Shown: positions 9,900-43,022, counted from the first letter of the stretch. The stretch is 64,000 bases of DNA from Pseudomonadota bacterium (GCA_037142195.1 JBAXBA010000007.1:1-64000); one strand, 5' to 3'. Numbers and translations are program-made. The notes: generated by a model not told the origin, from the sequence alone.

Positions 9900-11765
<1,866 letters not shown>

Positions 11766-12825: not shown

Positions 12826-12919
12826 ATAAGGTCCTTAAAGTGGAATGATGAATGGAGTCGTGTTTGGAATGGGCTCCGTATAGGAGCCTATCGGGAATTG
12901 AGTCGATTTCGCAGGGGCG

Positions 12920-13786: not shown

Positions 13787-13796
13787 TTCGGACACC

Positions 13797-15266: not shown

Positions 15267-16150
15267 CAGCCGCCTTCCTTTCCGAACAGCACATAGAACG
15301 ATGTTCCCTCGGGGACTTCGATAACGGGTTTTTCGTTTTTCAGGGACGACATCATCTCGCGGGATTGATCCAATGCAGCACGATTTGTGCCATTTAACAT
15401 CGCGTTTCGCACTGTGGACTTGTTCACCACTGCTGGACCCTGAACTTCCTTTTCCTGAAGACCTTCAGACAATCCGGAAATGAAGTTGAGACCAATGCTT
15501 CCCCCAAGGCGTAAGGCATACTGACCTGCCTTTGATCCCTTTAAGCCTGGAGTTTTATCGCTGCTGTCAGCGGCGTCTGCCTGAATTGCAGCCATTGATC
15601 CATCTTTAAAGACGACCTTGTCGAATCGGATGAAAAGCCTTTCCTCAGATGATTGTCCTGTACCGAGCAATACTGCTTCTGGCTCGATAAGTTCTTCGCC
15701 ATTAACGACAAGGCCATCAGTAAGAATTGCTTTGACAGGCCCGTTGGAAGCGCCAATTGCTAAGGAGGCCATCGCCAAAGCTCCCGGAGTGATAGAAATG
15801 TCTCGCGGGCGTTTTAAAAGCTTGGGGCCATTTAGCTTCAATGGCATTCCTTGTGTCCTCAACTTAGGCAGTTGATCCACGTCCTGAGAACCAGAAAGGG
15901 CGTCATAAATAGGTAGATTCAAACCGCTACTATCATCAGAAGGAGTAAAGTCATTTGGCAAAGCTACCGCTTTTGTAGCCTCTGATGACTCCTCAGGAGG
16001 TCCTCCGACAATAACAGCCACGGCAACAATCCCTAGTACAATGGCAACGATGAGACCGAACTTTCTGGTGCGCGCGAATTCCATGAGACGATCTGACCGA
16101 CTTTGCAGCCGGTCCTTTAGAATTCTTGGAGTGTCAGTGTTTTTTTCCAC
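15266..16150 (-). CDS. TrbI/VirB10-like (TraM/TraB-like) T4SS protein
   Basis: Single TM, linker, C-terminal beta domain ERLFIRFDK...DG...PGLKG...VIEVPEGT; GTG start with GGAGG RBS. Confidence 0.75.
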   Translation of the reverse strand: MEKNTDTPRILKDRLQSRSDRLMEFARTRKFGLIVAIVLGIVAVAVIVGGPPEESSEATKAVALPNDFTPSDDSSGLNLPIYDALSGSQDVDQLPKLRTQGMPLKLNGPKLLKRPRDISITPGALAMASLAIGASNGPVKAILTDGLVVNGEELIEPEAVLLGTGQSSEERLFIRFDKVVFKDGSMAAIQADAADSSDKTPGLKGSKAGQYALRLGGSIGLNFISGLSEGLQEKEVQGPAVVNKSTVRNAMLNGTNRAALDQSREMMSSLKNEKPVIEVPEGTSFYVLFGKEGG

Positions 16151-16526
16151 GTGCGGTTCCTCCCTGTGGTGCTTCGATGGCATCGCGCACAACGACGATG
16201 CTTTGGCCCCCCGATTCTGTTGCCCGGAGATCAAAGGTGAATCGACGCCCAAGCATGTAGACAAAAAGATTTGATCTGGCATTTGTTTTTAGAGGTGAAA
16301 TCGCCAGGTCATTTTCGACGTACTCAATTCCAAAAGATCCGGTGTTGCCTAAAATTACTTTGGTCGCCTTGGTCGGGAGGCTTAAGACAGTGCCTCTAAT
16401 CAGAACGGGAATCGCGGCAACCTGAGTATCTTTCAGATAAACCGTTTTCACTTCCTGACCGTAGGCGTTACAACTAGCTATCAAAACAACAAACAGCACG
16501 TTAGTCCCTAGGTTTGCAATTTTCAT
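16134..16526 (-). CDS. TrbG/VirB9-like T4SS protein (short)
   Basis: Signal peptide; VILGN...LAISP...SNLFVY..GRRFTFDL resembles the VirB9 N-domain; operon position. Confidence 0.65.
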   Translation of the reverse strand: MKIANLGTNVLFVVLIASCNAYGQEVKTVYLKDTQVAAIPVLIRGTVLSLPTKATKVILGNTGSFGIEYVENDLAISPLKTNARSNLFVYMLGRRFTFDLRATESGGQSIVVVRDAIEAPQGGTARGKKH

Positions 16527-17062
16527 TTGCCAATTTCCTTTCTATCGACGTTGTCAACTTTGCTAAGGAGGAGGCCGTAGGGGTTATCTTCGGTGCGTGT
16601 GGTGCGAGACACTAAAACCTCAAGTATGATGGGAAATGCTGATCTAATCTTATCGATGGATACTAGTCGATCAGCATCTACTCGAATGGCATCACCCTTG
16701 ATGGTTACGGAGTTAACGACCAGTTTTTGACCCATTCCCTTCTTTCTAAGGTCTTCCATTTCGATAGCGCGGGCTTTTAACTGTGGTAACGATAGATAGG
16801 CTGATTTTGCATCAATGCCTGTGCCAAAACGCTGAGGAAGCACTTCCTCGACAAAACCTTTAATCTCAACATCTGTGACATTGACCGACACCTTTTTGGC
16901 AGATTTGGAAATGCATCCTCGTTCGATGACAAGGGGATCTTTAAGAGCAAGTTTGGCGACTATGGTCGCAGTCGTGACTAACGAAATCGACAGCGCGCCA
17001 ATTACAAACTTTAAGGTTACGTTTTGGGCTGCGATATCGGCCCATGCAGTTGGAAATCTCAT
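16523..17062 (-). CDS. VirB8/TraE-like T4SS protein
   Basis: Single N-terminal TM and C-terminal RTEDNPYGL motif. Confidence 0.75.
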   Translation of the reverse strand: MRFPTAWADIAAQNVTLKFVIGALSISLVTTATIVAKLALKDPLVIERGCISKSAKKVSVNVTDVEIKGFVEEVLPQRFGTGIDAKSAYLSLPQLKARAIEMEDLRKKGMGQKLVVNSVTIKGDAIRVDADRLVSIDKIRSAFPIILEVLVSRTTRTEDNPYGLLLSKVDNVDRKEIGK

Positions 17063-17063
17063 A

Positions 17064-18050
17064 TTACTTTTCCTTCCAGGAAATTTTTAAACCAGAGTCG
17101 GTATTCTTGTGCTTGCGATTCTTTAAAGGAGAGCGCACGACACCGCTGCTGTAGTTCTTTGCTTCTTCCCGTTTTGCCTCAAAATGCGCCCGCGCCCGAG
17201 CGATAGGCATGGTTGTGATGCGGCGCGCGCCAGTAATTAAAGTCTGAGCTGGAGCCGTCGCTAAAGCGGAAAGGCTTGCTGGACCAGCAGCGCTCGCAAT
17301 AAGAGCGGTACCCGCGCCGCCACTTAAAGTTCCTGCGAGTCCGGCGACACCCTTATTGATAAGAGCACGTACTACCAATGGTGTGAAAATAACTGACAGT
17401 GACAGCATGATAGTATAGGTGAGTATTGTGATGAAATTAGTTTGCTCGTTTACGTTTTCAAAATTGTGGATTGCCGAACTCCACAGGAGTGTGCCGAGGA
17501 CAGACCATACGATTTTCCAGCCGGAAATCTCAAAAATGGAACGAAATAGGGCGGATGTAGCCGCCGCAGTTTGGGGCAAAATGAAGAACGCAATCAATAG
17601 TGGCGAAAAGACATAGAGGACCACCCATGCGTAGGCAATGGCAGCATCGAAAAAATAGACCGTGACATGAAGGATATAGAAGGCCAGGTACGAAATGACG
17701 AAAATAAATGAATCCCCAATTGAGGCCCAGGACCACGAAAGAGATTTAAGAGCTGCACCGGCTTTGCCCAAGACTAGTTTGTAGGAATTGAGATCTCCGA
17801 TGCGATTTGCAAGAGCATCAGCAACATCCGCTACGGCGTTGGCAATTTCTGGATAGCTGATGAGCAGTACCGCTGCAATGAGAGTCCTACCCACCAATTG
17901 TGAGAATCCAGGCATCCCTCCAAGGGGAATCTTGAAATACTCGATCACAACTCCGATCAGCAAAAACACAACTGCCAGAGAGAAGAAAATCGATACAAAA
18001 ATACTGTGAATATTTTGTGCCTCTTGAGTGACCCATGCGTAGTCCATCAT
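17064..18050 (-). CDS. VirB6/TrbL-like polytopic membrane protein
   Basis: Multiple TM helices, SPLLIAFFILP, Gly/Ala-rich tail; operon position. Confidence 0.72.
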   Translation of the reverse strand: MMDYAWVTQEAQNIHSIFVSIFFSLAVVFLLIGVVIEYFKIPLGGMPGFSQLVGRTLIAAVLLISYPEIANAVADVADALANRIGDLNSYKLVLGKAGAALKSLSWSWASIGDSFIFVISYLAFYILHVTVYFFDAAIAYAWVVLYVFSPLLIAFFILPQTAAATSALFRSIFEISGWKIVWSVLGTLLWSSAIHNFENVNEQTNFITILTYTIMLSLSVIFTPLVVRALINKGVAGLAGTLSGGAGTALIASAAGPASLSALATAPAQTLITGARRITTMPIARARAHFEAKREEAKNYSSGVVRSPLKNRKHKNTDSGLKISWKEK

Positions 18051-18052
18051 AG

Positions 18053-18757
18053 TTAGAGCCTCGGAAATTTGAATTCGGGTCGCATAGAGGTCATCGCTGC
18101 GTTGAGTTTGTCCGATGTGCTGCGAACCTGATCACTATAGACTTTGTCTTTCCGGTTTTGAATTGCCATGGATTGCGCTTGAAGCTTAAGGCCGGTTGCT
18201 TGAGCACGAAGAGACTGATTCATCACATGAAGCATGATGCCTAAAGATTGAGCTGTGATCTTTTGCGCTCCCTTTGGAGATGCAACGTTGCTATTGCGCT
18301 TGATTTTCTCGCCAATTTGATCGATTTCTCGCGCGTAACCGTAGATCGAATTGTTGAGAGAAATCGCCTCTGCGGCAGTCTGATCGGCGTCTTGTTGAAC
18401 TTTAAGTTCTGACGAGTCCACTGAGTTTCCATAGACATTCTTCACATACCTAAGGGCATCTTGGGCGCGAAGCAGCTCGCGGTACAAACCAGGGTCAAGG
18501 GCAGCACCTACGGAATTAACGAGACCAAGGGCGTCGTTTAAACCACGGTTTACATCCTGCATAAGGCTAAGTGTGTCCTGTCCCGTAGAAAGAAGTTGCC
18601 TCAATTGTAGAAGTTGCTGAATGGCATTCGCAAGGATCTGAGTTAGCACAACGACATCGCCGCCAAAAACATCAGCTCGGGATGTTTTTGGCGCTATCAT
18701 CAGAGAGCAGGCAACGATCCCTGATATTACCCTACTTTTGACGTTCCTAGATTTCAT
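18053..18757 (-). CDS. VirB5/TrbJ-like secreted helical protein
   Basis: Signal peptide, Gln-rich helical protein between VirB4 and VirB6 homologues. Confidence 0.6.
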   Translation of the reverse strand: MKSRNVKSRVISGIVACSLMIAPKTSRADVFGGDVVVLTQILANAIQQLLQLRQLLSTGQDTLSLMQDVNRGLNDALGLVNSVGAALDPGLYRELLRAQDALRYVKNVYGNSVDSSELKVQQDADQTAAEAISLNNSIYGYAREIDQIGEKIKRNSNVASPKGAQKITAQSLGIMLHVMNQSLRAQATGLKLQAQSMAIQNRKDKVYSDQVRSTSDKLNAAMTSMRPEFKFPRL

Positions 18758-18768
18758 AGTTTTCCCCT

Positions 18769-21174
18769 TTACCCGGCAGAGGAGACTCCGCGCGGGTATA
18801 ATTCAGAAAGCTCTTTGAGAATTTCCTGATGAGACTTTTGTGGGTGAATCTCCCGGTAAGCATCGATTGCCGCTAGATCGCGGGGATCGGTGGTTGCAAT
18901 CCATAGTTCTAGCGGCGCTGCTTCAATAACAGCAAGTGTTCGATTAGCACCCGCAATCAGAAAGGCTTCTGAAAAGACGCCCTTTTTCTGGTGCAGCGAA
19001 CTAACCAGCGCCACTTCGTTGTCGTTAAGTGCTAGAACCTCTTTGAGCCTGGTCTTGTCACCTTGAGGCTGGAGCAGTACCCACTTGACAGCACAGTTAG
19101 GCATAATGGCGCTCGCAATCTTTGACCTGGCAAAGTCGTCAATATCTTGAGAGATTGCGATAGCAGAGGCGTAGTATTTGCGAAAGGTACGGAATACTTC
19201 TTCAATGAAAACGAGTCCTGCATCACTTTTTAGGAGCTTCCAGCATTCATCAAAAACTAGAAACTTCATCGTCTTTCTATCGCGCTGGACCTCACGCCAA
19301 ACTAGGTCTGTGATGATGAATAGACAAATGGCTTGAAGATCAGGATAAGATTCCAATCCCTTTAGGTCGAAGGCTACAACATGAGAGTCAAGCTTGACGT
19401 TTGTAGGGCGATCTACAAACCTGCCGTATGGAGTATCGCCACACCAGGAATTTAGAATACGACCATAGCGGACTATCGACGCATCGGGGTGGGCAAGCAA
19501 TAAGTCCCTCAGTTCACTTAGACGCGGAGATACGCTCTTTTCATAGAGGCGTTGAATAGCCTCTTCGATTTCTGAGCGTTCAAGACGCGGGAGCCGCTCT
19601 TGTTCGTCTTCTTTGGTCATCAGTTCAATAAGCCCCAAGAGAAATTTTATCTTTTGACTTGAAGGCACCGTTTCTCCAGGCGCGAGGTCGAAAGGGTTAA
19701 TGGCGATACCCTCAGTCAGCGACAAGTCCACATATTGGCCCGATAGGTTCTCGCAGAGCTTTTTGTAGGAACCGCCGATGTCTACAAAAAAGACACGCGG
19801 ATTTTCCTTCAGCATCTGAAGCAAAAGCACGTTAGTGAGGAATGACTTGCCTGCGCCCGATGCGCCGCTGACAAGTTGATTGGCGTTGGTTAGCCCAGGA
19901 TCGAACGGATCTATTGAGAGTAGATTACCCATTCGCGTTCTAAGTAGTATACGCGGCTCTCGATGCCCTCGCCACGGACCATAAAGAGGCACTAAGTCAC
20001 AAAGATTTGATGTTTTCATGCGCTTTGATCGATCATTGACTCGTGAGTTAGGCAAAGAAAATTGCGTGAACAAGTCAAAAGCAGCAAGACTTTCTTCGAG
20101 CCCTTCGGCTCTTCCCATTTCTCTCATGACAGAAAGCGTTTGCGCGACTTGCATTCGTAAGTGCTCCTCGTCATGGCTACGAAGTAAAACATTCATGCTG
20201 CCGTGGAATACCTTTTCACCCTGGGCGATCATTTGTTCCAAAAGGCGTTCAAGATCCGTAAACTTCGCCGTGCTCTCAATGTCCGAGACACCAGACTTTT
20301 TGCCGAAAGCCATGGAATAGGCGATTCGCCTCTGGGTTTGAAGGCTTTCTAGCTCCTTCGTTTGATCGGGGACATGAATAGTAAAAAAAAGTCTGGAGTC
20401 GAATGGCATCTCTCGAAGTACCGACGCCATGGACGAATAGGATTGATCTGGCAAAAGCTTCAGTGAAATCACACGATGGTGCATCCCGCCAATGGCAAAT
20501 CCTCGATCTGAAATGCCAACGTCGGAAAATAGGAGAGACGTACGTACCGACTCCGGATCAAAACCTTTTAGCTCAATAGGTCTATTTGGATTCCACTGCT
20601 GGTAAATCAGATTCATCATCGCTTCAACAGCGATAATCTTAGGCTCCATACCTAAGGCCATAAGCTGCGTTGTCATCTCCTCTTTTAGTCGTTCCGCATC
20701 CGCAAGTTCGCGATGAAACGCCGCTTCATTCATCTCGTTGAAACTTGCTTGTCTTGTGAATATCTTAGGCTTACGGAGACGACTGCCTGACCAAGCGCGC
20801 CGGGCTAAGAGAAACAAGGAATGATGGGGCAAACTACCCTCGCCATCCAGTTGCTCGAGTTGCTTGCATCGTTGTTCTGTCATTGAAGCAGCTAACGATT
20901 GTTTGTTCGCAACAGACAACTTGCCGTGATTCTCAATAATAAAACTATTCCCACCTTTGATATCCTGTATAAATTGAAGATCCAGACCGCTTGGGAGGCT
21001 GTTTAGAAACTGTTTTGTGCGCTCGGAAAAATCGTTGATCATTTCGTCCGATGAACACGAGACGTCTAAGGGTGCAAGCTCAAATCCGAACCCTATGGAA
21101 CCATCAGCAAAAACTACATTTCCATCTTCAATTCCCCAAATTTGGAGATAGTCAGCGAGTGTCTCACTCATCAT
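18769..21174 (-). CDS. virB4: VirB4/TraC conjugative ATPase
   Basis: GASGAGKS Walker A, VDIGGSY, INPFD, VFDECW, FRKY...ISQ; start at the ATGA overlap with the upstream gene. Confidence 0.92.
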   Translation of the reverse strand: MMSETLADYLQIWGIEDGNVVFADGSIGFGFELAPLDVSCSSDEMINDFSERTKQFLNSLPSGLDLQFIQDIKGGNSFIIENHGKLSVANKQSLAASMTEQRCKQLEQLDGEGSLPHHSLFLLARRAWSGSRLRKPKIFTRQASFNEMNEAAFHRELADAERLKEEMTTQLMALGMEPKIIAVEAMMNLIYQQWNPNRPIELKGFDPESVRTSLLFSDVGISDRGFAIGGMHHRVISLKLLPDQSYSSMASVLREMPFDSRLFFTIHVPDQTKELESLQTQRRIAYSMAFGKKSGVSDIESTAKFTDLERLLEQMIAQGEKVFHGSMNVLLRSHDEEHLRMQVAQTLSVMREMGRAEGLEESLAAFDLFTQFSLPNSRVNDRSKRMKTSNLCDLVPLYGPWRGHREPRILLRTRMGNLLSIDPFDPGLTNANQLVSGASGAGKSFLTNVLLLQMLKENPRVFFVDIGGSYKKLCENLSGQYVDLSLTEGIAINPFDLAPGETVPSSQKIKFLLGLIELMTKEDEQERLPRLERSEIEEAIQRLYEKSVSPRLSELRDLLLAHPDASIVRYGRILNSWCGDTPYGRFVDRPTNVKLDSHVVAFDLKGLESYPDLQAICLFIITDLVWREVQRDRKTMKFLVFDECWKLLKSDAGLVFIEEVFRTFRKYYASAIAISQDIDDFARSKIASAIMPNCAVKWVLLQPQGDKTRLKEVLALNDNEVALVSSLHQKKGVFSEAFLIAGANRTLAVIEAAPLELWIATTDPRDLAAIDAYREIHPQKSHQEILKELSELYPRGVSSAG

Positions 21175-21494
21175 CGGGCACCTCTTGCATTTTTGTTTGG
21201 TGGCAGTGGCCACTCGGAGGGTTCGTTGAACGCAAAGAGTTGCTTGCGACGGAGCTGGAAGCGCACCAAGTGAATCAAATAATTGTCTGGTTTGCCGCGC
21301 TTTCCGATTCTTAAAGTCACAGCTAGAAAGATAGTTGGCAGCCAAACTAAGACCATCTTCATGTCCGTCCGACCAAACATGAAGTTCAGAAGGGAAAGTA
21401 AAAAGAAGATTGCGAGCAAGTCAGGAATCTCATAGCCAGCAATCTGCAGTTTTTTGTCGAGGCAGCGGCTAATTTGGGCTGTTTTAAGTGCCAT
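21171..21494 (-). CDS. VirB3/TraL-like membrane protein
   Basis: Small 2-TM protein with KRGKPDNYL, directly upstream of virB4; AAGGAG RBS. Confidence 0.72.
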   Translation of the reverse strand: MALKTAQISRCLDKKLQIAGYEIPDLLAIFFLLSLLNFMFGRTDMKMVLVWLPTIFLAVTLRIGKRGKPDNYLIHLVRFQLRRKQLFAFNEPSEWPLPPNKNARGAR

Positions 21495-21518
21495 GGAACT
21501 CCTTTTGACAGATGATAA

Positions 21519-21555
21519 TCGGCGAGTCCCCTGCCTTGAGGCTGGGGCCCGCCGA
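21519..21555 (-). other. GC-rich stem-loop after the pilin gene
   Basis: TCGGCGAGTCCCCTGCC-TTGA-GGCTGGGGCCCGCCGA imperfect dyad with no U-tract on the coding strand. Confidence 0.55.
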
Positions 21556-21565
21556 AAACTTTCGG

Positions 21566-21853
21566 CTAGTTGATCATGCCGCGTATGAACGCGATGATGC
21601 TGGGTGCGCCAAAACCGATTACGGCGCCCATCATGGCAAGAAAGAGATGCGACCTTGCATTGGCGTTGCCAGTAAAGAAGGAAAATGCGGCAAATACTAA
21701 CCCTAGAATTCCGGCTAGCGGCAGAATGACGTTGATTAGTTTATTCTGTACTGCCATCAAGCTAGACTCTACGCTACCCAAAGCAAGCGATGAGGCGAAA
21801 ACCAAACAAACGGTCAAAAACGACAAACCAAATCGTTTACTTGCAATAGACAT
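21566..21853 (-). CDS. TrbC/VirB2 family pilin
   Basis: 95 aa, signal peptide plus two hydrophobic helices ending GFGAPSII; GGAGG RBS; upstream of VirB3/VirB4. Confidence 0.82.
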   Translation of the reverse strand: MSIASKRFGLSFLTVCLVFASSLALGSVESSLMAVQNKLINVILPLAGILGLVFAAFSFFTGNANARSHLFLAMMGAVIGFGAPSIIAFIRGMIN

Positions 21854-21931
21854 TTATAGACCTCCACAAAGGCGGAAACATTGGCGGCGTGCTACTCAGA
21901 GGTAGATTCGGAGCCGTGATTTTGTGGAACA

Positions 21932-22276
21932 CTACTCAGCCGGAAAAAGGCTCATGAACACCCGACGGTCAATAAGATTAAATCGAATCTCAAGATGCGT
22001 CTTTAAATCCATGCGAAGACGGGCAGCCCCTACCGGATTCTGAAACCGAACTCCCTCTTCGTCTCGGAGAATTTTGCTAAAGAGGGTGTAGTTTGGATTT
22101 TCTCCAAAGTTTCTATTAAGGAAGTATGTCACCCCCGGAAACATGTGCAGCCTGAGACTATAGAATGACTCATCTCCCTTGCGAATGGCTAGTCCAGCAT
22201 TTTTTGGAAGCAGTAGCTTTCCAGCTTCAAAGCGGCCAACTAGTAGTTCGTGTTTCAGTTCATTCACGTCATTCAT
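21932..22276 (-). CDS. Hypothetical beta-rich protein (weak DUF736-like resemblance)
   Basis: 114-aa ORF with AAGGAG RBS in the tra operon. Confidence 0.6.
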   Translation of the reverse strand: MNDVNELKHELLVGRFEAGKLLLPKNAGLAIRKGDESFYSLRLHMFPGVTYFLNRNFGENPNYTLFSKILRDEEGVRFQNPVGAARLRMDLKTHLEIRFNLIDRRVFMSLFPAE

Positions 22277-22288
22277 CTTGGGAGCTCC

Positions 22289-22531
22289 TTAACCATTTAA
22301 TTTAAGTTCGTCAGATACGTGATCGAACAGTTCTTGATCTCTTTCTCTATTCGCCAGATCATTCCCATTGGCAAACGCTTCGCGACGTTGTTCGGCACGG
22401 TGTAGTTCACGGCAATTGACCCGTATTCTTTCAATTAGACTCCGGCAGTTTCCTAACACTTCAACTGGAAACTGGTCCAAAGCTAACAACAAAGGTTTAA
22501 TTGACATACTGATGCGGCCACTCAAGGCCAC
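22289..22531 (-). CDS. Hypothetical protein
   Basis: Short co-oriented ORF ending 12 nt before the next gene; start uncertain (ATG near 22507). Confidence 0.4.
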   Translation of the reverse strand: MALSGRISMSIKPLLLALDQFPVEVLGNCRSLIERIRVNCRELHRAEQRREAFANGNDLANRERDQELFDHVSDELKLNG

Positions 22532-22855
22532 GTCAATTTTGCCGATCTGTGCTCGTCTCGACGGCTGCTGATAATCGCGGACAGAGCTCGGTCTATACGC
22601 CTTAAAATGCCTTTGCTTCGGTGACTATTCGTGGGCATTTCACCACGAAGTTTGATCAAATCGGCGCGCAATTCTTCGAGCATGTGTGTCACTTACTGAC
22701 TCCTTCTTGAAGCTAAAACCCAACGTGTCGTGCCCTTTGAACACGCGAATAGTGCTCGCGCTGATACTTAGCCGATTGTGCGTGATCCCACCAGACCGCT
22801 TCGTGTGATCTCCAGAGCGAGCGCAGAGCACGGCGAACGGATTTGAGTTTGATTT

Positions 22856-23035
22856 TCATGGGCCGGTCCTCCTGATACACGCCTTGTTTCGCAGGCTGGA
22901 TTGCTGCCGACGGGAGGTGGGCATATTAAGCTGTGGATCAAACTCAGGGCAGTAATTGCAGTTCACGCAATAGCAGTGGGTCTTTAGTACTTCGTAGGCC
23001 GCCTCCCAACATCGGGGGCATCTGTAAAATGGCAT
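22856..23035 (-). CDS. Small Cys-rich zinc-ribbon protein, first gene of the tra operon (not in ORF track)
   Basis: MPFYRCPRCWEAAYEVLKTHCYCVNCNYCPEF..., 59 aa, AGGAGG RBS. Confidence 0.7.
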   Translation of the reverse strand: MPFYRCPRCWEAAYEVLKTHCYCVNCNYCPEFDPQLNMPTSRRQQSSLRNKACIRRTGP

Positions 23036-23089
23036 GTTCTTAACCTCCTACTTGTGAGTCTCAGAGTCGATTCTCTACATGTAGGTAGT

Positions 23090-23105
23090 TGCAAGAGCGT
23101 GCCAA
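23090..23105 (-). promoter_or_regulatory. Sigma54-like -24/-12 promoter facing the tra operon (spacer 1 nt shorter than canonical)
   Basis: TTGGCACG-CTC-TTGCA on the minus strand, 55 nt upstream of the first ATG. Confidence 0.5.
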
Positions 23106-23167
23106 CGCATAGGATTAGCGCAAATGATAGGAAGTATCTGTATTAATTTGGAATTTTTCTTGGATTA

Positions 23168-23217
23168 GAGTCTCAATGTGATACTGAGTCTCAGAGAGTA
23201 TCTATCTTGGAGTCTCA
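23168..23217. promoter_or_regulatory. Three GAGTCTCA boxes (candidate activator binding sites)
   Basis: Exact GAGTCTCA at 23168, 23186 and 23210; fourth copy at 23056; dyad GTCTCA-N3-TGATAC. Confidence 0.6.
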
Positions 23218-23703
23218 GATTTCTTGGTATTTTTCTCCAAACTCGATAGGCTTGATTTCTCCTCGCACATAAAGTGGATGTCTGGGGTGACCGTGTTTTG
23301 TAATTCCTAAGCAGTAAGGTGAGTCCAATAATTTTAATACTGCTTTATTTCTTTCGTTGAGTGCTCCGTTTGTTCCCCAAGCAATCAACACTAGTTTACA
23401 ACGGGACTGGAGTTTTATAATCCAGTCATTATTTTCTGGCCCGATAGGGTCATTATTTGGGGCTGAATTAAGTTTACTTGGATCTTTTGATCGATATGCA
23501 AATAGGTTAGCCATGATTAAGCCGCCATACCCCCAGCTCTTTGAAAAATTGATACATCGACATATAGTTCGGTCGTCTTCTACTTCATCTGCGGTCGAGG
23601 GGTTTAGGCCGACGAACATTGCCAAAGGCAAGGCCTCATCCCAAACACGGTAGAGAGCGTATCTATAGACCCTGTCGGCCGAAAAATCAGCTGATTTTTT
23701 CAT
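23215..23703 (-). CDS. DUF1643 family protein
   Basis: YRYALYRVW, FVGLNPSTAD, NLFAYRS, AWG and GHPRHPLY motifs. Confidence 0.88.
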   Translation of the reverse strand: MKKSADFSADRVYRYALYRVWDEALPLAMFVGLNPSTADEVEDDRTICRCINFSKSWGYGGLIMANLFAYRSKDPSKLNSAPNNDPIGPENNDWIIKLQSRCKLVLIAWGTNGALNERNKAVLKLLDSPYCLGITKHGHPRHPLYVRGEIKPIEFGEKYQEI

Positions 23704-23899
23704 AAATATATGCCAATTGAAGTGACAACTAACATTTTATACTCTTAAGCTTCTTCTAATATGGCAAGCTTAGTTCAAAAAGTCTTCATCTATCTTTTAT
23801 GGCGGATTCTTTCAATAGGGTTATATAGCGCCTTAGGCATTCCAAACTGTATTTAGCTATCTCTCTCCCAGTCGACTATGCAAAAAAGGATCTCTTTTT

Positions 23900-25771
23900 C
23901 CCGACTTCGACGGTGAAATGAACAAAAATATATAATATCAGCATGTTAAGTTGTTGCTGGGCACTACATTCTAGATTTTGTAAGGTGTGCTGCTTCTTTC
24001 TAGGTCAAATGCTGCATATATTTCGAGCTGACTTTTGTCGGTTGCGGAGGGAATGACATAGCGATTCTGGGTTGGCTTGTCGATGATCTTGCTAGCTTCT
24101 ACTCTGCGGAGTCGATGCCTCATTTCGTCAATACTGATTACTAGTCCCTTTTTCTTGAGTCTATGAACACTGTGCTTAGCCACAGCATAGGTGAGGTAGC
24201 AAAGACTTATATGAGAGCGAATTCTACGGGGACTCCAGTGATATATGGGTCTCATTTTTAGACTATGTTTGTTGACGCGGAATGCTTCCTCAATTTGCCA
24301 AAGCCCTCGGTAGCGCTCAAGGATCTTTGCAGAATGATCTTCTGAAATATTAGTGATAACACCGTGAAGGCCATCCCAGTTTGCATCATTTTCTACTTTA
24401 TTGAAGTCGATTTCAGCGGATCCGGACTTAATTTTTAAGTACTTTTTTGTTCCGCTGTTGGAAATGACATCCCCGATTTTGATGTCTTCTTTTCCAGGAC
24501 TAACTTTCTTTAATAGACGATCCACCAGTCTTTGACGGTCTGAAGCGTCTTTTTTGGCCCGACTGCTGCTGTAGCTTACAACGAGGGTCTACCTTCATTT
24601 TCAAAATCTCGAACCAAATGAAATTCATTATTTACACAAGTTGCCTTAAACTCAGAGATTAAGATTTCATCCTTTTTCGCTTTTGAAAAGCTCTTGAGCT
24701 TGGCCGCCACAACATACTTGATTTCATGTCTTTCAAGCTCTTCTAAGTTATCCGGTGTAAACATCCCTCGATCAGCAACCAGAGCAATTTGAGAGACTTT
24801 AAAGCTTTCTTTCAACTCTTTAACCACGTGAAGAAGGGTGTGTCCTTCAAAAGTATTGCCTGGAAACAACTGATAGGAAATAGGAAGGCCGTCATGCGTT
24901 GTCACTGGAGCCTACATGACTTGCGACTGATTAAACTTACAGTCCGTGCTAAATTCAAAGTTTCGAAGCTCATCTCGTTCAATGCTTTCGAAGTACAGAG
25001 TAGTGACATCAAAAAACAAAACATCAACTTCTTGGTCAATTATCGCCAAAGTCTTCTGAGCTACCGTTTGTTTGATCTTGCCTTCAATATCTGAAAGTAG
25101 ATCCATCATTCGATAGATCTTTTTTACTGGGATCTTTATATCAAACTCTTCATTCATAAATCGCGAAGTTGCTCTTTTGCTATCGGGCTCGGCAATGCGA
25201 GCAAGTACAGAGGACTGTAAAATATCATTCCACTCTCGGTCTTTTGATGTGCCCTGAACCAATTTATCAAAGCCTAAGTCTTCATAGACCTTGCCGAAAA
25301 TGTCAGAAATCCCTTCATTAAAGCGCTTTTCTTCTTTTAAATTAAATGGATAGACCATTTCATCCCCTAGAGGTAGTTGCCTCTTGCTTGAAGAGTGGAA
25401 TTCAGCAGATTCTAAAATAGGTAGAACAGGCTTAGCGGCATTTTTATTTCTACAATCGCCACTTCGCCTATCCTTTTAAACTCAGCAACCTTTTTTTCCG
25501 AGTAAGGAGTGCCTATATTTCTAACGATTTTCTGACGAACGCTTTTGCCTTCACGAACAGATTAAACAATCTGCACCTGCCAACGCTTTTCATCTTTTTT
25601 CTTTGCTAATACATAAATGCATACATGCATACAAGCTATCGCAGGCCTAAAACAAAGGTCACCCGGGGCAGGACAAAACGCCTGTTTTTGAAAATAAATT
25701 TTTACTCTAAAAATTACAGAAAGTTGCCCAGTCTAAATCACTCAAAAGTTGGGTTGGCTGTCGAAGTCAGG
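23900..25771 (-). mobile_element. IS1634-family insertion sequence, degenerate
   Basis: Terminal IRs CCCGACTTCGACGG / CTGTCGAAGTCAGG enclosing transposase fragments. Confidence 0.85.
23971..25625 (-). pseudogene. IS1634 transposase broken by stops and frameshifts
   Basis: Fragments with FFDVTTLYFE, VADRGM and YRGLWQIEEAFR..K...RPIYHW in different ORFs. Confidence 0.88.
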
Positions 25772-25941
25772 AAAATCACCGGAAGATATTAAAGAAGTTT
25801 GTGATGCTTATGCAGATATGGGCGGAATCAAGACAGAGCTTTCTGGGGTAAATTGTCCTTAGGGATTTGCGATTTTTTTAGATCAAAAACAAAGCCCTCT
25901 GATTAAGAGGGCCTTGCTTTGAAATAAGTTTTAAAATAAAT

Positions 25942-26391
25942 TTAAAAAACAGGTTCGTCATCATTAGCACCCCGACCGATTTTTCGGGATTTTTCCAATT
26001 TTTCTTTGTGCTTAACCGAGTAGCGTGTCCAAGGAGAAAGCTCCAAACGGCGTTTAGGGATAGGTTCTCCAGTTCCTTCGCATAGACCAAATTCCCCGTT
26101 GCCGATTTTGGCAATGGCGTGTTCAATTTCTGCAAGCTGCTGGTTATCCCTGTCAAGTAGGCGTAACGATAAGTTTTGCTCAACTGTAGCTGCTGCCAAA
26201 TCAACTTCGTCCATCATTTCGTTGGAATCGAGTTGAATCGTTCCAGCATTAAGAGTGGATTTAGTTTTTTCCAACAATTTATCTTTTTCGTCCACTAAGA
26301 CTTTCAAGAAAGCTATGAGTTCTTCTTTAGAAAAAAACTCGTTTTCAGCGATATCAAAGTCGGTAGAATCAAATTCTTTTTTGTTACCCAA
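25942..26391 (-). CDS. dksA: DksA/TraR family transcription factor, single-Cys variant
   Basis: DEVDLA coiled-coil tip; GEFGLCEGTGEPIPKRRLELSPWTRYS; probable TTG start after GGAG. Confidence 0.85.
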   Translation of the reverse strand: MGNKKEFDSTDFDIAENEFFSKEELIAFLKVLVDEKDKLLEKTKSTLNAGTIQLDSNEMMDEVDLAAATVEQNLSLRLLDRDNQQLAEIEHAIAKIGNGEFGLCEGTGEPIPKRRLELSPWTRYSVKHKEKLEKSRKIGRGANDDEPVF

Positions 26392-26629
26392 GGCAAACTC
26401 CAAAAATTTTCCCCGGCCCTTACTTGGCCAAGCCAAGGCCAAAACCTTGAGCAAAGTGACCAGGCACTATATCTCTAGGGAAAGGTTATTACAAGTGCCA
26501 AAGGGAGACGAAATTAGAGCCCGCATAGAATCACTATTTGGTTTTTATATCAGTTGGTTGCAGCCAATTTTTTTCCTCTAGCGTACATGTTTTTAAGCAT
26601 TCGTGGCAGGATATCGAGCGCTAAATTAT

Positions 26630-26796
26630 CCCGACTTCGACGGTGAAATGAACAAAAATAAAGTCAGCTCGAAATATATACAGCAATTGAGCTAGAAAGA
26701 AGCAGCACACCTTACAAAATCTAAAATGTAGTGCCCCAGCAAAAACTTAACTTACTGATATTATTTATTTTTGTCCATTTCACTGTCGAAGTCGGG
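26630..26796. mobile_element. MITE-like element built from two copies of the IS1634 right end
   Basis: ~31-bp terminal IRs; 26661-26796 is a diverged reverse complement of 23900-24035. Confidence 0.8.
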
Positions 26797-27001
26797 AGGT
26801 ACTTTCCGTCCTTTTTTTCGGCGAGACGATATTTTTTTCCTGATTTGCATACACCCATAACATCATAGTCACTGAATTTGGTTTATGTGCCAGCCGCCCT
26901 TGAACCATAGGGAAAAACTGTGTGGCAGCGATAGGTCGTGACTAGCTTTTCTACAAGAAAGCACAGAACTGGATTTGAAGAATAAGATTCATTGTGTTTC
27001 A

Positions 27002-28381
27002 TTAGGTCAGCTCCTGACTGTTGATTCGAGATTTCACCAAGCCAAGATCTTTTGCTCGGCGAAAGAAAGTGGCTCTTGAAATACCGAGCAATTTGGCTGC
27101 TTCAACGCGACTCCCTCGGGTTTTAATAATTGCCTTTTCGTATCGCTCACGCTCGCTCATTACGATTGAAGCACCATAGCTACCAACAAGTGCTCTCGCC
27201 GCTGCGGCGGTGAATATGGTGTTAGCCTCAGGAAGTGTATGATAGATATCCTTCTCGCGAATAACTGCACTGTCACTATTCGCTAAACTCTCAACGACTG
27301 CCTTGAGTTGTCGAACATTTCCTGGCCAGGAATATGACTGAAGTAGTCTCATTGCCTCAGGAGTAACCATAGGTCGCTTGGGTTTTGATATCATGCCAAG
27401 AAAATAGTGAACTAACTCGGGAATGTCTTCGACCCGCTCGCGCAGGGATGGAATACGAATGATGTCTTTGGCAACGCGGTAATATAAATCCTCGCGAAAT
27501 TTGCCGCCTTTTACTGCTTCTTCAAGATTTACATGGGTCGCGGCGATACATCGGAAACTTACGTCCTTTTCCTTGTGAGTGCCAACAGGCTGAACTTTGC
27601 GTTCTTGTAAAACTCTCAACAATTTAGCTTGTTGCGCAAGTGGTAACTCTCCGATTTCATCGAGAAACACAAAACCACCGCCGGCAGCTTCAAATGCTCC
27701 AACTCGATCCCTTTCTGCCCCTGTGAATGCGCCTCTGACATGGCCAAAGAATTCAGACTCGGCCAAGCCATCACTAACCGCTCCACAGTGAATGACGACA
27801 AAACGTCTTGCAGGGTCCGCTTCAAAGGCAATACTTTGGGCAACCAGCTCCTTTCCGGTGCCGGTCTCGCCTTGGAGCAGCACATCTTTAGTGCCGCCCT
27901 TAATTGCGCGAGCGATGTCACTACGGAGCTTCTGCATTTGGGGTGAGCCCCCAATCAAGGGGGTTTTACTTTTTTGAGTAAGATGCTCTGAAGCACGACG
28001 ACGAGTCTCTCGATCCTGCAAGGCTCGATCGACAGCCTGCCGAATCTCTTCTACGCTAGACATTTTTGGGACAAACTGGGCAACACCTGCATTAAATATC
28101 TCTATTAGCCGCTTGTGATCGGTTTCACCGCTGATTACAATCACATCCGTTTCGCGATCGATAGAGTGTATCTTTCGGAAAATGTCCAAGCCACTCCGTG
28201 AATCTCCTTCGAAATTCAAGTCTAATAGAACTACATCATAGAAATGGCTGCTGACAGCTTGGAGCCCTTGATCAATCGTTTCATAGGTATCTACATCGCA
28301 GGAGCCTTCCAGAATCATCGGAACTTGCTCTAGCCATGTGGGATCGTCATCAATCACAAGAATTCGTGGTTTTCTGTTCAT
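27002..28381 (-). CDS. NtrC-family sigma54-dependent response regulator
   Basis: REC domain, [39 protein letters not shown]-terminal Fis-type HTH. Confidence 0.95.
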
Positions 28382-28794
28382 ATTTCACCACCAGGCGGCA
28401 TGAAGGGACGTCTCCAATAGTGTGGGCTAAGGTTATCCAAAGTAATAGTCATGGCCTTAGTACTATCGCTCCCTTGAGGAACTGCTACCTCGACACCGCC
28501 TCCCCAAAACCAAAGCCGTTCTTGGCAGACCCCACAAGGGCTTAAAATATGACACTTCTCTTTGTCATCAAAAGAAATGCAAACAGAAAGCGCAACTTGC
28601 TTTCCCTTTTTATAAGCTTCGCAAATTCCACCGGTTTCATGGCATAGAGAAACCGATTCATTGACTGTTTCAGGAGAGGTTGAAATCAATATCTCTCCAT
28701 CCTTGCAAAGGATGGCGGCAGCGCCTTTCCAGGTGGTGTCGGCAAATCTGCTTTTGACAAATGACTTCGCTTCACTGATCAAATTCTCAATCAT
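28378..28794 (-). CDS. Cytidine deaminase-like protein
   Basis: SLCHE...LSPCGVCQERL zinc motifs of the tetrameric CDA/blasticidin-S deaminase type. Confidence 0.85.
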   Translation of the reverse strand: MIENLISEAKSFVKSRFADTTWKGAAAILCKDGEILISTSPETVNESVSLCHETGGICEAYKKGKQVALSVCISFDDKEKCHILSPCGVCQERLWFWGGGVEVAVPQGSDSTKAMTITLDNLSPHYWRRPFMPPGGEI

Positions 28795-30145
28795 ATATCA
28801 CTCCATCTCCCTGAAACCTTTTTGGTAGTCCAAATACAAAATTGGCTCCTCCCAAATCTTTTGACTGCCCTGCTTGGATGTAACCGCCATGCCCGCGAAC
28901 TATTTTGCCGGTAATATAGAGGCCAAGACCTGCCCCATTCGCTTTGGTCGATCTTGTAGGCTTAAAGAGGGGCTCGATGTCAGCGGGCAGGCCGGGGCCG
29001 GAATCTTCTACACAGACCTGGACTAGTCTCTCATCTGTCCTAAGCACTGAAACCCGCACTTCTCGAACGGCTTCTGACTCAATGCTTACAGGAATTGCAT
29101 CAATACCGTTTCGGATCAGATTGGCTAGTGCCCTTTCTAATTGAACAGGATCGTGAGGAACGTCTATTTTTTCACCACGTAGGCGAAAATCGATATTAAC
29201 TCCCTTATTTTTTGCCTGGTCGCGATTCGCATCAATGGCCCCTTCAATTGTCTGGCTTAAATTATTAGAAGCTGAGTGAATAGGAATTTCTCTGCTGCCA
29301 TCGAGTGTAAGTTCAATAATTCGCTTCATTTTTGGAAGGTTAGTTGCACTCGCTCGGTAGAGAGCCTCTAGTCGCTCACTTCTTTTCTCAAGATCGTTTT
29401 GCTTTTCCTTCACCAACTCGGTAGCGGTTAGCAAGGAGTGCAGAAATGTCCTGATGTCGTGAACTACACCTTTTGCAAGCATCGCAAAGACAGCCTGCTC
29501 GCGTGCATCAAATGACTCTGCAAGGCTTCTTGCTATCTCTTTTAACTCATCGGGCCAATGGTCAGGGATGTTGCTTCTTCGCTCAGCGGCATTGACCAGG
29601 GAATTGATTGGTTCAATAACAAATCGCCGCAAAAACATTCGTTGAAGGATAAGTCCAGTTACCAGGGCGAGGAATATAGGAATTGCGCTCCACATGAGCA
29701 AGAATAGATTTAGAAACGACCATAGCGGCCTCAATGGCTGTCCTAAAGCGATATACGCCCCTGTATCTGTGTGGGGAACTTTCCGATAGAACTCAATCTT
29801 ACCAGCTCGCAAATGATAGCAGCTCTCTTCTTTCGGTGCCCCGCATGTAGCCTGGTCGCTTACAATCTGAATTGAATCCAATGTCAATTGTTGCTTAAGA
29901 AGCTGAAGTACGGGCTCTAAAGAGCCGTTTTCAGCCAATATAATTTCGGCAGAAGCACGACGCGCAGCGATTATTGATTTCTGCTCTAGATCTGACGCCA
30001 GCCGCTCTTTGCTATTTTGGTAGTCAAGCCAGCCAAGCAGGACAAAAACGATTAAACTCGCAACGATGGCGAGAACACCTGGTCCTATCCAGGAAAGAAG
30101 GACATAGTCGCGAAGGCGGCGACGATATTTGCGGATTCCTATCAC
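28787..30145 (-). CDS. Sensor histidine kinase
   Basis: Two TM segments, HDIR H-box, NLIRNG, EDSGPG, GAGLGL. Confidence 0.93.
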   Translation of the reverse strand: MIGIRKYRRRLRDYVLLSWIGPGVLAIVASLIVFVLLGWLDYQNSKERLASDLEQKSIIAARRASAEIILAENGSLEPVLQLLKQQLTLDSIQIVSDQATCGAPKEESCYHLRAGKIEFYRKVPHTDTGAYIALGQPLRPLWSFLNLFLLMWSAIPIFLALVTGLILQRMFLRRFVIEPINSLVNAAERRSNIPDHWPDELKEIARSLAESFDAREQAVFAMLAKGVVHDIRTFLHSLLTATELVKEKQNDLEKRSERLEALYRASATNLPKMKRIIELTLDGSREIPIHSASNNLSQTIEGAIDANRDQAKNKGVNIDFRLRGEKIDVPHDPVQLERALANLIRNGIDAIPVSIESEAVREVRVSVLRTDERLVQVCVEDSGPGLPADIEPLFKPTRSTKANGAGLGLYITGKIVRGHGGYIQAGQSKDLGGANFVFGLPKRFQGDGVIYD

Positions 30146-31294
30146 CTATAGACCCCTACTTGTTTTAAGAAATGAAATGTTTCCATTTTCAAGGTTGTAA
30201 ATACTGGTTCCCCAGGGCGCGGAATAAAGCTTCCGTCCCACTTTCTTGAAGCCAGCAACAAACTCAGTGCTATTTTCTGGCTTAGAGTCGCACAATAGTT
30301 GAGCAGTCGAATCAAAGACTCGAAGAATCGCGATGGCAGAGCTGCTGCCGTAAGTGTCTGCCGGGCCAGCTTTCAAAATCTCTTTGCCTATTGAGAAAGT
30401 TTTCAAAGAAGCATCAATCGACGGATTTCCCCGAACAGTGAAACCAGCAGTACTTCCGATGTCCTCGCGATTTTGAACAAATCCAAACCTAGAATTGCCC
30501 CAGCCATCGCCCCCAACAAAAAAAGCATTGGGTAAAGCAAGATGAATTGCGGAGATTAGATGACTTGTGACGATTGAGTAGTTAGGTAAAAGAACGAATG
30601 ACGGTTTGTATTTTGAAAGTTCAGCAATGATAGGAGCCATATTCGGAGCATCGCCCACAATAGAAATTTCTCCGGATTTCTTTAAACCTAAAGAAGTAGC
30701 TCGCACGTCGAAATGCTTTGCGAAGTCCTTGCATGAAAGGCAGTCCGCGCTGACTATCGAAACATAGGCTTTAGAAGATTTGGGGTTAATACGAATCGCA
30801 GCTTCTTCAGCGGCCGTGTGCGCCATTGCCGAGTTGGGTGGTGCTAGGCTAAGATGAAGACTTCCCAAGGTGGATACTTCATCCGAGGAAGCCATAAGAC
30901 TAACTGACGGCACATTTGGCGCACCTTTAGCAAGTAGCAGATAGTGGTTGCTCCGGCGGGGGCCAACAATCATCCAAGCACCTTCCTTTGTCGATTTTTC
31001 GGCGTGCTCTCTTGCCTGAATGGGGTCACTTGCGCCGTAGAACGAAGCTGTTGGCGAGATCTCAAATCCACATGAGCTTAATCTTTGGGCTGTAAGTTCT
31101 TTGCCCTTAGCAATCGCAGATTCGTATTCTTGCTGGAATCTTTGAGACGAGGTTGTATCTTTTGGATCCAAGGCTTCTATAAAAACTAGCTTTACTTTCG
31201 TAGGAGTTTGCAAATTAGCCAAAGCTCTTTTGCCGAAATAACAGGTGGCTAGAAGGATCAATCCAAGACTTTTAATCATGAAATTTTCCGCCAT
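30146..31294 (-). CDS. Type I periplasmic binding protein (LIV-like)
   Basis: Signal peptide; IVGPRRS, SLMASS and VGGDGWG motifs; no ABC permease nearby. Confidence 0.8.
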   Translation of the reverse strand: MAENFMIKSLGLILLATCYFGKRALANLQTPTKVKLVFIEALDPKDTTSSQRFQQEYESAIAKGKELTAQRLSSCGFEISPTASFYGASDPIQAREHAEKSTKEGAWMIVGPRRSNHYLLLAKGAPNVPSVSLMASSDEVSTLGSLHLSLAPPNSAMAHTAAEEAAIRINPKSSKAYVSIVSADCLSCKDFAKHFDVRATSLGLKKSGEISIVGDAPNMAPIIAELSKYKPSFVLLPNYSIVTSHLISAIHLALPNAFFVGGDGWGNSRFGFVQNREDIGSTAGFTVRGNPSIDASLKTFSIGKEILKAGPADTYGSSSAIAILRVFDSTAQLLCDSKPENSTEFVAGFKKVGRKLYSAPWGTSIYNLENGNISFLKTSRGL

Positions 31295-31656
31295 ACGATA
31301 GTAGCTTTACCGTAAGACTCCTGCGGAGTGGTGATGGTCAACAGGTCGCCGTTTAGGGAAGCGAAGCGAACCATCTGTTTACCCACTCGGGATGAATTTG
31401 AAGCCAAGGTCACCTGATGGCGGATGCAGTTCTCTTCTAGCAAGTAGGTACCGGCGTAAAACAGGATTGAATCAATAAGATCATTTTCGGGGTTCCCGGT
31501 GCTGACGATGTCTTTATTGATTGCGACACTGACATGGCCGGTCGCCGAGTAAATTAACAGGCCGCGAGCATTAGTGCCCCACGGACGCTTCCCTTTTTCG
31601 GGGCTGTCGATCTCGAACGACTCAAGCTCCCAAGATCCGATTGGATTCAGATTCAT
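31276..31656 (-). CDS. Lipocalin-like domain protein (Lipocalin_5 type)
   Basis: IGSWELESF...GLLIYSATG...FYAGTY...H...VGKQMVR...IVWRK; no signal peptide. Confidence 0.82.
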   Translation of the reverse strand: MNLNPIGSWELESFEIDSPEKGKRPWGTNARGLLIYSATGHVSVAINKDIVSTGNPENDLIDSILFYAGTYLLEENCIRHQVTLASNSSRVGKQMVRFASLNGDLLTITTPQESYGKATIVWRKIS

Positions 31657-31742
31657 TCTATTGCTCCGTATAAAAGTCTCGACACGCTATGTATATTTGA
31701 TATCTTACACTTGTCAAGTCCCAGTATTTATATGAGATTCAA

Positions 31743-31767
31743 GTATCGTCTTGAGACTTGAGTCTCA
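31743..31767. promoter_or_regulatory. TGAGAC/GTCTCA dyad cluster upstream of the signalling operon
   Basis: GTATCG-TCT-TGAGAC-TTGA-GTCTCA; same motif as 23168-23217. Confidence 0.55.
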
Positions 31768-31849
31768 TAGCTCTAAACCAGTCAATTACTTCGTGTTTAC
31801 TTGTCATTGATTGTCGTGGACAATAACTCATAGGCCCTCGCTGGAGATA

Positions 31850-32080
31850 ATGATGGCACCTGAAGAGCGCTGGCTTTCGGGCGAGGAAATTGCTGTGCAC
31901 ATGGGCGTTTCTAAGGAAACTGTCTATCGCTGGCTGGATTGTGGAACGATCCGCGCTCTCACCGCATTGGGAAGCTGTGGGGGTTCAAAACTTCAGAAAT
32001 GGGCGAGTGGGTCAGGAATGGCGGCGCCGCAGAACCCGCTAGTCGCAGTGAGAAAGGAGGTGGGCGTAAATGGTTCTTAA
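31850..32080 (+). pseudogene. Excisionase-like HTH_17 protein, frameshifted
   Basis: RWLSGEEIAVHMGVSKETVYRW continues as HRIGKLWGFKTSE in another frame near 31957. Confidence 0.78.
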
Positions 32081-42968: not shown

Positions 42969-43022
42969 GAATATTCATCAGGACATTGCTAAATTCGTTT
43001 GACCCGGCGCACTGCGCAATAT

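Follow-up and report, generated by a model that had tools for sequence, protein, structure and literature searches.

How transfer of an integrative conjugative element (ICE) is switched on, and by what signal, is the question raised by positions 22856 to 31767 of a 64,000-nucleotide stretch of DNA from a Pseudomonadota bacterium (GCA_037142195.1, JBAXBA010000007.1:1-64000), here called the window, in which an operon of sensory genes lies upstream of the tra operon of such an element. To our knowledge, few conjugative elements are known to base transfer on the sensing of an outside chemical, and those use a different logic, i.e., pheromones, quorum signals, DNA damage or antibiotics. An original prediction, made from the sequence alone, had proposed that DNA boxes shared by both operons couple the sensor genes to the tra genes, which encode a type IV secretion system (T4SS). 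Based on sequence comparison and structure modelling, on which the whole account given here is built, it is fairly probable that an element-encoded sensory module switches on the ICE transfer operon via a conserved promoter and at the same time regulates itself. Element borders, gene families, synteny, the conservation and geometry of motifs, the host rpoN gene and a protein complex model that passes its controls were computed, and from these we infer the binder of the boxes, the dependence on sigma54, the direction of regulation and the ligand. This core of the circuit is the best-supported reading of the locus; it recurs as a conserved trait across an ICE family of considerable size, with a promoter spacing that seems to be new.

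As had been predicted, the sensor operon consists of five abutting or overlapping genes, all on the minus strand (27002-31656), and the families assigned to them were confirmed. The operon starts with a gene for a Lipocalin_5 protein (31276..31656, Pfam), which has no evident signal peptide and is present in 78 of the 81 loci described below. It is followed by the gene for an orphan periplasmic binding protein (PBP) of 382 aa (30146..31294), classified as LivJ-type (type I) by its homologues and its fold model. This protein, for which at least 278 homologues were counted, has no Pfam match of its own, its homologues carry Peripla_BP_6, and no transporter genes were found adjacent to it by Pfam. 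The third gene encodes a membrane histidine kinase (28787..30145, Pfam) with two hydrophobic segments, recognized by eye, around a loop of ~100 aa in which a conserved RRxSAE motif was seen in the alignment. A cytidine/blasticidin-S-deaminase-like gene (28378..28794) separates the kinase gene from the last gene of the operon (27002..28381; Pfam, NCBIfam), which encodes an NtrC-type response regulator, i.e., a sigma54 enhancer-binding protein (EBP), referred to as the activator. Its REC, AAA+ and HTH_8 domains (PF00072, 3e-18; PF00158, 5e-57; PF02954, 4e-06) and the GAFTGA, Walker A GETGTGKE and DEIGE motifs in its translation place it in the NtrC family of EBPs. The best NCBIfam matches are NtrC, GlrR, AtoC and ZraR, all of them under the family cut-offs.

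The 8-mer GAGTCTCA was confirmed at all five places where it had been noticed before, around the tra promoter and upstream of the sensor operon. A sixth copy, unlisted earlier, lies at 48305, giving six copies in the window against 2.0 expected. Genome-wide, 142 copies are present, and the only pairs less than 150 bp apart are those at 23056-23217. Clusters of at least three hexamers within 120 bp occur, in the whole genome, at the tra promoter and otherwise only on contig C17, where three GTCTCA hexamers are found within 27 bp (4901-4921) and the 450 bases inspected show no -24/-12-like site.

At the tra promoter, three TGAGACTC boxes on the minus strand form a predicted upstream activator-site array (23168..23217); counted from the T of TGGCAC, they are placed at -71, -89 and -113, so that the nearest box starts 71 bp and the farthest 113 bp before the promoter site. 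A further TGAGACTC box is found in the leader (23056..23063, minus strand), 41 nt past the same T and just before the ribosome-binding site. The promoter itself, TTGGCACGCTCTTGCAA (23090..23106, minus strand), is of the -24/-12 type with a GG-N9-GC spacing that is shared with relatives. The TTGGCACG...TTGCA site that had been claimed is present at 23091-23104 on the minus strand and is aimed into tra. What had gone unnoticed is that its spacing, TGGCAC-N4-TTGC, is one base under the sigma54 consensus, which is given as TGGCACG-N4-TTGC, i.e., TGGCAC-N5-TTGC, in the available part of the cited source (PMC3224663). The -24 GG and -12 GC elements, TGGCACG and TTGCA, are both present, and no sigma70-like site was found on the tra strand between 23036 and 23214. 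Among the sequencing runs searched for this stretch, none containing it is recorded as RNA. A 180-bp non-coding region separates the tra operon from the DUF1643 gene that precedes it.

Relatives of the module were collected by scans with the PBP alignment A2, which gave 80 loci, 28 from species genomes and 52 from metagenomes, or 81 including the window. These loci come from Bdellovibrionota-like genomes and metagenomes, and judging from the names of homologues and related records, the host of the element belongs to a Bdellovibrionales/Oligoflexales-like group. The order lipocalin-PBP-kinase-activator was found in 49 of the 81 loci; the contig ends too early in 28, and the activator gene comes first in four. 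Close PBP homologues were present in four of 60 relatives, all four with the order lipocalin-PBP-kinase-activator and without the deaminase gene. Thus, of the five genes expected to co-occur in homologous elements, those for lipocalin, PBP, kinase and activator do so, and the one for the deaminase (1/81) does not.

In all 26 stretches that reach tra downstream of the activator gene, two or more boxes lie within the 150 bp ahead of a TGGCAC-N4-TTGC-type site, and no other promoter spacing was found in these 26 stretches. Some of them represent the same element in both collections; removal of identical regions and addition of six separately recovered promoters resulted in 28 distinct promoter regions with 23 distinct cores. 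In the 28 regions, boxes recur at -113, -101, -92, -83 and -73 from the T of TGGCAC, and the gap between boxes and promoter is AT-rich (median 65% A+T). An extra box is located at +39 to +41 in 24 of the 28 regions, in either orientation and shortly before the ribosome-binding site. An RNA-level role of this leader box was considered and rejected, as its orientation flips between elements and its position is fixed, which indicates that the box acts as DNA and not as RNA. Two genomes, G014 and G018, carry the module upstream of the same Zn-ribbon gene and tra operon, with the boxes and the identically spaced promoter conserved. The sensor operon is indeed element-encoded, lying in the middle of the ICE according to border mapping, and is syntenic with tra in 26/26 informative stretches; likewise, the boxes and the promoter that were predicted to be shared by related tra leaders are conserved at fixed positions. 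That a short spacer is so strictly conserved, with the boxes fixed in position, suggests that the architecture of this promoter is a specialised one.

At the other promoter, the dyad TGAGACTTGAGTCTCA (31752..31767) lies ~35 bp upstream of the -35 hexamer of a sigma70-like promoter, TTGACA-16-TATACA (31690..31717, minus strand), which was read from the sequence and whose TTGACA is position-conserved in relatives. TGAGACTTGAGTCTCA is the sole TGAGAC-N4-GTCTCA in the 4.0-Mb genome. Dyads had been claimed at both promoters; the one upstream of the sensor operon stands, and the tra promoter carries direct repeats in this window instead. In 48 of 78 loci, the lipocalin gene has a perfect 16-bp TGAGAC-N4-GTCTCA no more than 260 bp upstream, ~35-45 bp before TTGACA, in agreement with the autoregulation that had been proposed. 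In addition, 12 of 27 regions examined contain an extra GTCTCA 7-8 nt past TTGACA, within the promoter spacer, which is not seen in the window. The dyad at 31752-31767 is probably an autoregulatory site, and the arrangement of the sensor promoter suggests autoregulation that is probably negative.

To the input side belong the PBP and the kinase. The AlphaFold model of the PBP has a pLDDT of 88.7, and its nearest folds in Foldseek are Leu/Ile/Val-, gamma-aminobutyric acid (GABA)-, aromatic-acid- and urea-binding proteins; a profile of the alignment A2 searched against solved structures found no relative by sequence. When the mature PBP was modelled together with the periplasmic loop of the kinase, an ipSAE of 0.82 was obtained (0.81-0.83 in three runs), compared to 0.16 for the best control. 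Of 157 solved complexes, 116 come up to the ipSAE mark, as do two of 215 mismatched pairs; these counts hold roughly here, where own alignments were used. Contacts agree between the runs to at least 97%, the partner has a pLDDT of at least 86, and the interface is formed at the invariant kinase residues R62, R63 and E67 and the conserved PBP residues S89, D90 and N116. Based on this model, the PBP is likely a co-sensor of the kinase, similar to LuxPQ, TorTS and ChvE-VirA. A nucleoside-like signal, as had been suggested, finds no support in the fold relatives, which bind amino acids, GABA, aromatic acids or urea.

The idea that the deaminase makes, modifies or destroys the signal had to be abandoned as well. 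The 138-aa protein scores 137.1 bits against NF006155 (cut-off 129 bits), matches PDB 3b8f, a putative blasticidin-S deaminase, with an E value of 6e-26, and shows the zinc motifs H-x-E (CHE) and PCxxC (PCGVC) in its translation, which makes it a member of the deaminase family. Its likeness to the blasticidin-S/homotetrameric cytidine deaminases thus extends to the NF006155 score, the 3b8f match and the zinc motifs; unlike the known enzymes, however, the window copy sits inside a regulatory operon, and in this one element only. The gene is absent from 80/80 related loci. Since it occurs only in the window, the deaminase was rejected as a part of the circuit and is regarded as cargo that landed between the kinase and activator genes.

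Taken in sequence, the proposed mechanism would run as follows. The LivJ-type binding protein would capture a small ligand and dock on the periplasmic loop of the histidine kinase, which would then phosphorylate the NtrC-type activator. The activator would assemble on the TGAGAC(TC) array at ~-113 to -72 of the -24/-12-type promoter, with one further box at +40, and, together with host sigma54, open the promoter and drive the Zn-ribbon gene and the T4SS/tra operon. The same activator would bind the TGAGAC-N4-GTCTCA dyad by its own sigma70-like promoter and thereby autoregulate, and the half-site inside the promoter spacer of many relatives would point to repression.

Several observations weigh against this circuit. 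The defining sigma54 spacing, GG-N10-GC, is not present, as GG-N9-GC is found in 28/28 distinct related promoters, and one-base spacer deletions are reported to inactivate classical sigma54 promoters. Candidate sites of the host, a 4.0-Mb genome of 43.8% G+C with a single rpoN, keep the canonical N5 spacer: 11 of 20 such sites are intergenic, nine of these 11 with the start of an open reading frame (ORF) within ~200 nt, compared to 3/6 intergenic sites for N4 (tra site included), 6/20 for N3 and 4/17 for N6. A host sigma54 that prefers unusual spacing was rejected for this reason, the canonical N5 sites being those enriched before genes. The +40 site is likewise unusual for enhancer-binding proteins. 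On the side of the module, 11 stretches with at least 4 kb past the activator gene show no tra gene. Four loci (L134, L152, L155 and L156) carry the module rearranged as activator-lipocalin-PBP-kinase, with divergent box-flanked sites of canonical sigma54 spacing, which read TGGCAC-N5-TTGCT in three and have GTGC as -12 element in L134; in themselves, these sites link the module to sigma54. The canonical-spacing site of L134 faces a tra operon, and those of L152, L155 and L156 face genes of ~180, 740 and 800-900 aa without Pfam match and without a recognisable T4SS, so that a tie between sensor module and transfer does not exist in every case. Finally, the covariation of activator and boxes described below amounts to one clear lineage, and PRSTFFRK-type helices go with mixed or standard boxes.

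These points feed three alternatives to the circuit. That TGGCACG-N3-TTGCW is no working sigma54 promoter but the site of another factor or another sigma, with an ordinary activator or repressor binding the boxes, is an unlikely explanation, albeit one to be taken seriously: the short spacing and the canonical spacing of the host sites speak in its favour, and the +40 leader box would suit a repressor or roadblock. However, GG, GC and the flanking consensus letters are kept in all 23 cores while the sequence past TTGCW is variable, as it is at sigma54 promoters, the tra strand lacks a recognisable sigma70-like site over the interval given above, a GAFTGA activator is always encoded upstream, and the rearranged relatives carry box-flanked sites of canonical spacing. 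The possibility that another protein of the element reads the boxes, such as the HTH_17 protein or the Zn-ribbon protein, and that the target of the activator is a different one or its own operon only, appears more improbable still. An HTH_17 gene stands divergent beside the dyad in the window and in 20 of 80 related loci, and several elements have the Zn-ribbon gene at the head of tra, with a box in its leader. The HTH_17 gene, however, is frameshifted in the window and is not seen beside the module in most loci whose sequence extends upstream beyond the lipocalin gene, and an enhancer-binding protein would be expected to have its sites where the boxes lie, 70-115 bp before a -24/-12-type site. 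Among DNA-binding proteins, the activator alone occurs in every complete module, and its recognition helix is SRATFFRR, as in the window, or a near variant in most loci. One locus, L087, differs: its helix is SKSAYYRQ, and it has no TGAGAC at either promoter but carries TGGGAC/GGGACT in the tra array and GTCCCA/ACTCCC by the sensor promoter, boxes that are unique among the loci. The HTH_17 recognition region, in comparison, is identical in L087 and in L092, which has standard boxes. The Zn-ribbon protein was rejected as box reader, since no Zn-ribbon match is found in 17 of 26 box-bearing elements (e.g., L076, L079, L080, L084, L087 and L089). From sequence covariation and gene content, we infer that the activator binds the TGAGAC boxes.

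Least probable by a wide distance from even chances is that the sensor operon is ordinary cargo beside tra, with the shared boxes serving its own regulation only. The interval from the activator gene to the tra promoter does take up metal-resistance, UmuDC-like and other genes, and the module also occurs rearranged beside the genes without Pfam match. Yet the synteny with tra extends to all 26 informative stretches, at VirB4 identities down to 24-34%, which is not the sporadic occurrence expected of cargo; the box array stays with the tra promoter whatever cargo intervenes, and the boxes at both promoters changed together in L087. Pfam searches on five of the 11 tra-less stretches identified cargo (metal efflux, MerB/MerR, CadD, chromate, UmuDC-like and others), and in four of these 11 genomes that were traced further, the same promoter type was found beside a T4SS in 4/4, in two cases 11 and ~17 kb further along the same contig and in the other two on other contigs. 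Returning to the circuit of sensor module and tra promoter, a more specific version of it can be put forward tentatively, although we hold it to be doubtful: the promoters would form a natural class of activator-dependent -24/-12 promoters in which GG and GC are one base closer than sigma54 supposedly tolerates, and which would work only in a rigid nucleoprotein frame with sites at ~-113 to -72 and +40. Either the sigma54 holoenzyme would be loaded in a shifted geometry by the dedicated activator or a factor of the element would read the site, and in both cases an extracellular small molecule sensed by PBP and kinase would gate conjugation across a Bdellovibrionota ICE family.

Enhancer-type control may be a general trait of this T4SS lineage. 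Counting the genome of the window itself, 18 of 95 genomes of the order were found to have a VirB4 of this kind. Among T4SS relatives without the lipocalin-PBP module, which have another kinase-activator pair or none, no TGAGAC arrays were found. Three of these, G057, G082 and G026, carry TGGCACG-N4-TTGA sites with other repeats. Sites of the form TGGCACG-N4-TTGA(A/G/T), of canonical spacing with the -12 C replaced by A, were noted upstream of tra at L050 8436, L053 676 (reverse strand) and L056 2311, each with upstream repeats of its own. G057 has a different kinase-activator pair alongside, G026 a different activator gene, inside which the contig starts, and the G082 stretch is too short to show whether such genes lie nearby. 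In the plasmid collection, the nearest VirB4 belongs to a Myxococcus plasmid and shows 25.8% identity, so that there is no close characterised T4SS from which the regulation could be borrowed.

Several known systems share parts of the proposed circuit. NtrB/NtrC-type systems (glnAp2, ZraSR, AtoSC) are alike in the REC, AAA+ (GAFTGA), HTH_8 architecture of the activator, in repeated sites ~70-115 bp before -24/-12 and in autoregulatory sites at the sigma70 promoter of the regulator. In contrast to these, the system described here is encoded by an ICE and aimed at T4SS/tra, the spacer is one base short, an extra +40 site is present, and a periplasmic binding protein and a lipocalin-like protein accompany the kinase. 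The VirA/VirG-ChvE system of the Agrobacterium Ti plasmid combines an element-encoded kinase and regulator with repeated boxes and T4SS operons, and its PBP docks on the kinase as a co-sensor. The logic resembles that proposed here, a likeness by general description; VirG is an OmpR-type regulator working with sigma70, ChvE is chromosomal, and the system exports T-DNA to plants and performs no ICE transfer. LuxP-LuxQ and TorT-TorS, as generally described, are alike in that an orphan PBP gene lies beside that of a membrane kinase with no adjacent ABC transporter; here, however, the PBP is LivJ-like type I, a distant structural relative of those partners, and the output is an NtrC-type regulator. 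RteB of the Bacteroides element CTnDOT is NtrC-like. According to the part of the source available, the element-encoded two-component system RteA/RteB is needed for excision and transfer of CTnDOT, RteB works via a cascade from RteC to Xis2c/Xis2d, and tetracycline induction occurs by translational attenuation (PMC3809561). Other than in the circuit proposed here, RteB does not act directly at tra and no PBP is involved, and a sigma54 promoter is not mentioned in that part of the source (PMC3809561).

In a literature search at the level of listings and abstracts, no relevant paper was found on sigma54/EBP-controlled or PBP-coupled conjugation, nor on sigma54 spacers shorter than consensus. A 2017 ICE review has RpoN in its reference list only and never mentions two-component systems. 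The statement that this is not a described ICE control system therefore needs to be divided: within the reach of that search, no sigma54/EBP- or PBP-coupled case came up, but element-encoded two-component control as such is known from CTnDOT. If the circuit holds, transfer operon and periplasmic ligand sensor appear to be coupled directly, via an enhancer-dependent promoter, in an ICE family of predatory-type freshwater bacteria, and with at least 28 distinct promoter regions the natural trigger of gene transfer would be directly testable in this family. The conserved one-base-short spacing contradicts textbook sigma54 geometry and would offer a natural test case for how the holoenzyme reads DNA.

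The ICE extends from ~10060 to 42770 (32.7 kb) and is inserted at a tRNA-Ala gene, as derived from the similarity to the same-genus genome G001 and from border repeats. The tRNA-Ala(GGC) gene (9984..10059, plus strand; ARAGORN, Rfam) carries attL at its 3' end, ACCTCCACCA, of which a second copy lies near 42770; attR, the copy of the tRNA 3' end (CACCTCCACCAG), was placed at 42765..42777 by the border repeat and the G001 comparison. Up to 10062, the identity between G001 and the window is 91%; G001 then resumes with homology to 42765 onward, both flanks being joined there without the ICE, though other islands follow. The serine recombinase, VirB4/TraC, the FtsK-like ATPase, the border direct repeats and the element-free site in G001 identify the element as an ICE. 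For a relaxase, a weak Replic_Relax match alone was obtained (Pfam, E 9e-4, under cut-off). The large serine recombinase (9900..11765, minus strand; Pfam) has Resolvase, Recombinase and Zn_ribbon_recom domains. Its 9900-10062 part crosses the element border and overlaps the tRNA-Ala gene on the opposite strand; as the ORF reads through the border, its last ~54 codons are host-derived. Rfam at gathering thresholds over 9000-44000 identified tRNA only, with no known leader RNA or riboswitch.

The tra/T4SS operon (12020..23035, minus strand) was delimited by Pfam, NCBIfam and synteny with G014 and others. Its first gene is the Zn-ribbon ORF of 59 aa (22856-23035), and further genes, all on the minus strand and assigned by Pfam/NCBIfam, encode a TrbC-like pilin (21566-21853), VirB4/TraC (18769-21345), TrbI (15266-16282) and an FtsK-like coupling ATPase (13797-15266); the Replic_Relax-like protein (12920-13810) is assigned by its weak Pfam match, and a CagX-like protein is encoded as well. 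Between the activator gene and the tra promoter lies variable cargo. In the window, this is a DUF1643 gene (23215..23703, minus strand; Pfam), which was not seen at the same place in the relatives, and an insertion sequence (IS)-like insertion (23899..26797; repeat search, Pfam) bounded by inverted repeats of ~140 nt (90-95% complementary), which contains three DDE transposase fragments and an intact-looking DksA/TraR-type zinc-finger gene (25942-26454). The same interval is a cargo hotspot in L075, L077, L085, L090, L092 and L094, with RND/CDF efflux, MerB/MerR, CadD, a chromate transporter, FTR1-cytochrome c, UmuDC-like genes and a 1743-aa fibronectin-III repeat protein, so that the sensor-tra interval collects, among others, metal-resistance genes in relatives.

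On the other side of the sensor operon, the divergent excisionase-family HTH_17 gene (31811..32080, plus strand) was assigned by Pfam, TIGR01764 and alignment to intact relatives, in which it is one intact ORF. In the window, it is frameshifted near 31945, and the conserved C-terminal part (HRIGKLWGFKTSE...) runs on in another frame (31811-32127). Next comes a type I restriction-modification system (32070-38905), in which hsdS and hsdM are separated by an additional AAA_13/SMC-like ATPase gene (36219-37295), and beyond this system lie genes for a DUF7380-DUF4209 protein (39175-40995) and an LPO_1073/Vpar_1526-family protein (41564-42451). A second small island after the ICE, reaching to ~45.9 kb (42582-46161), carries a Fic gene (44292-45680). 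It is flanked by 90-120-bp repeats (42769-42968 and 45804-45991), which are also present in three copies behind the tRNA-Ala gene in G001; together, the Fic island and the G001 repeats look like a hotspot for tandem islands.

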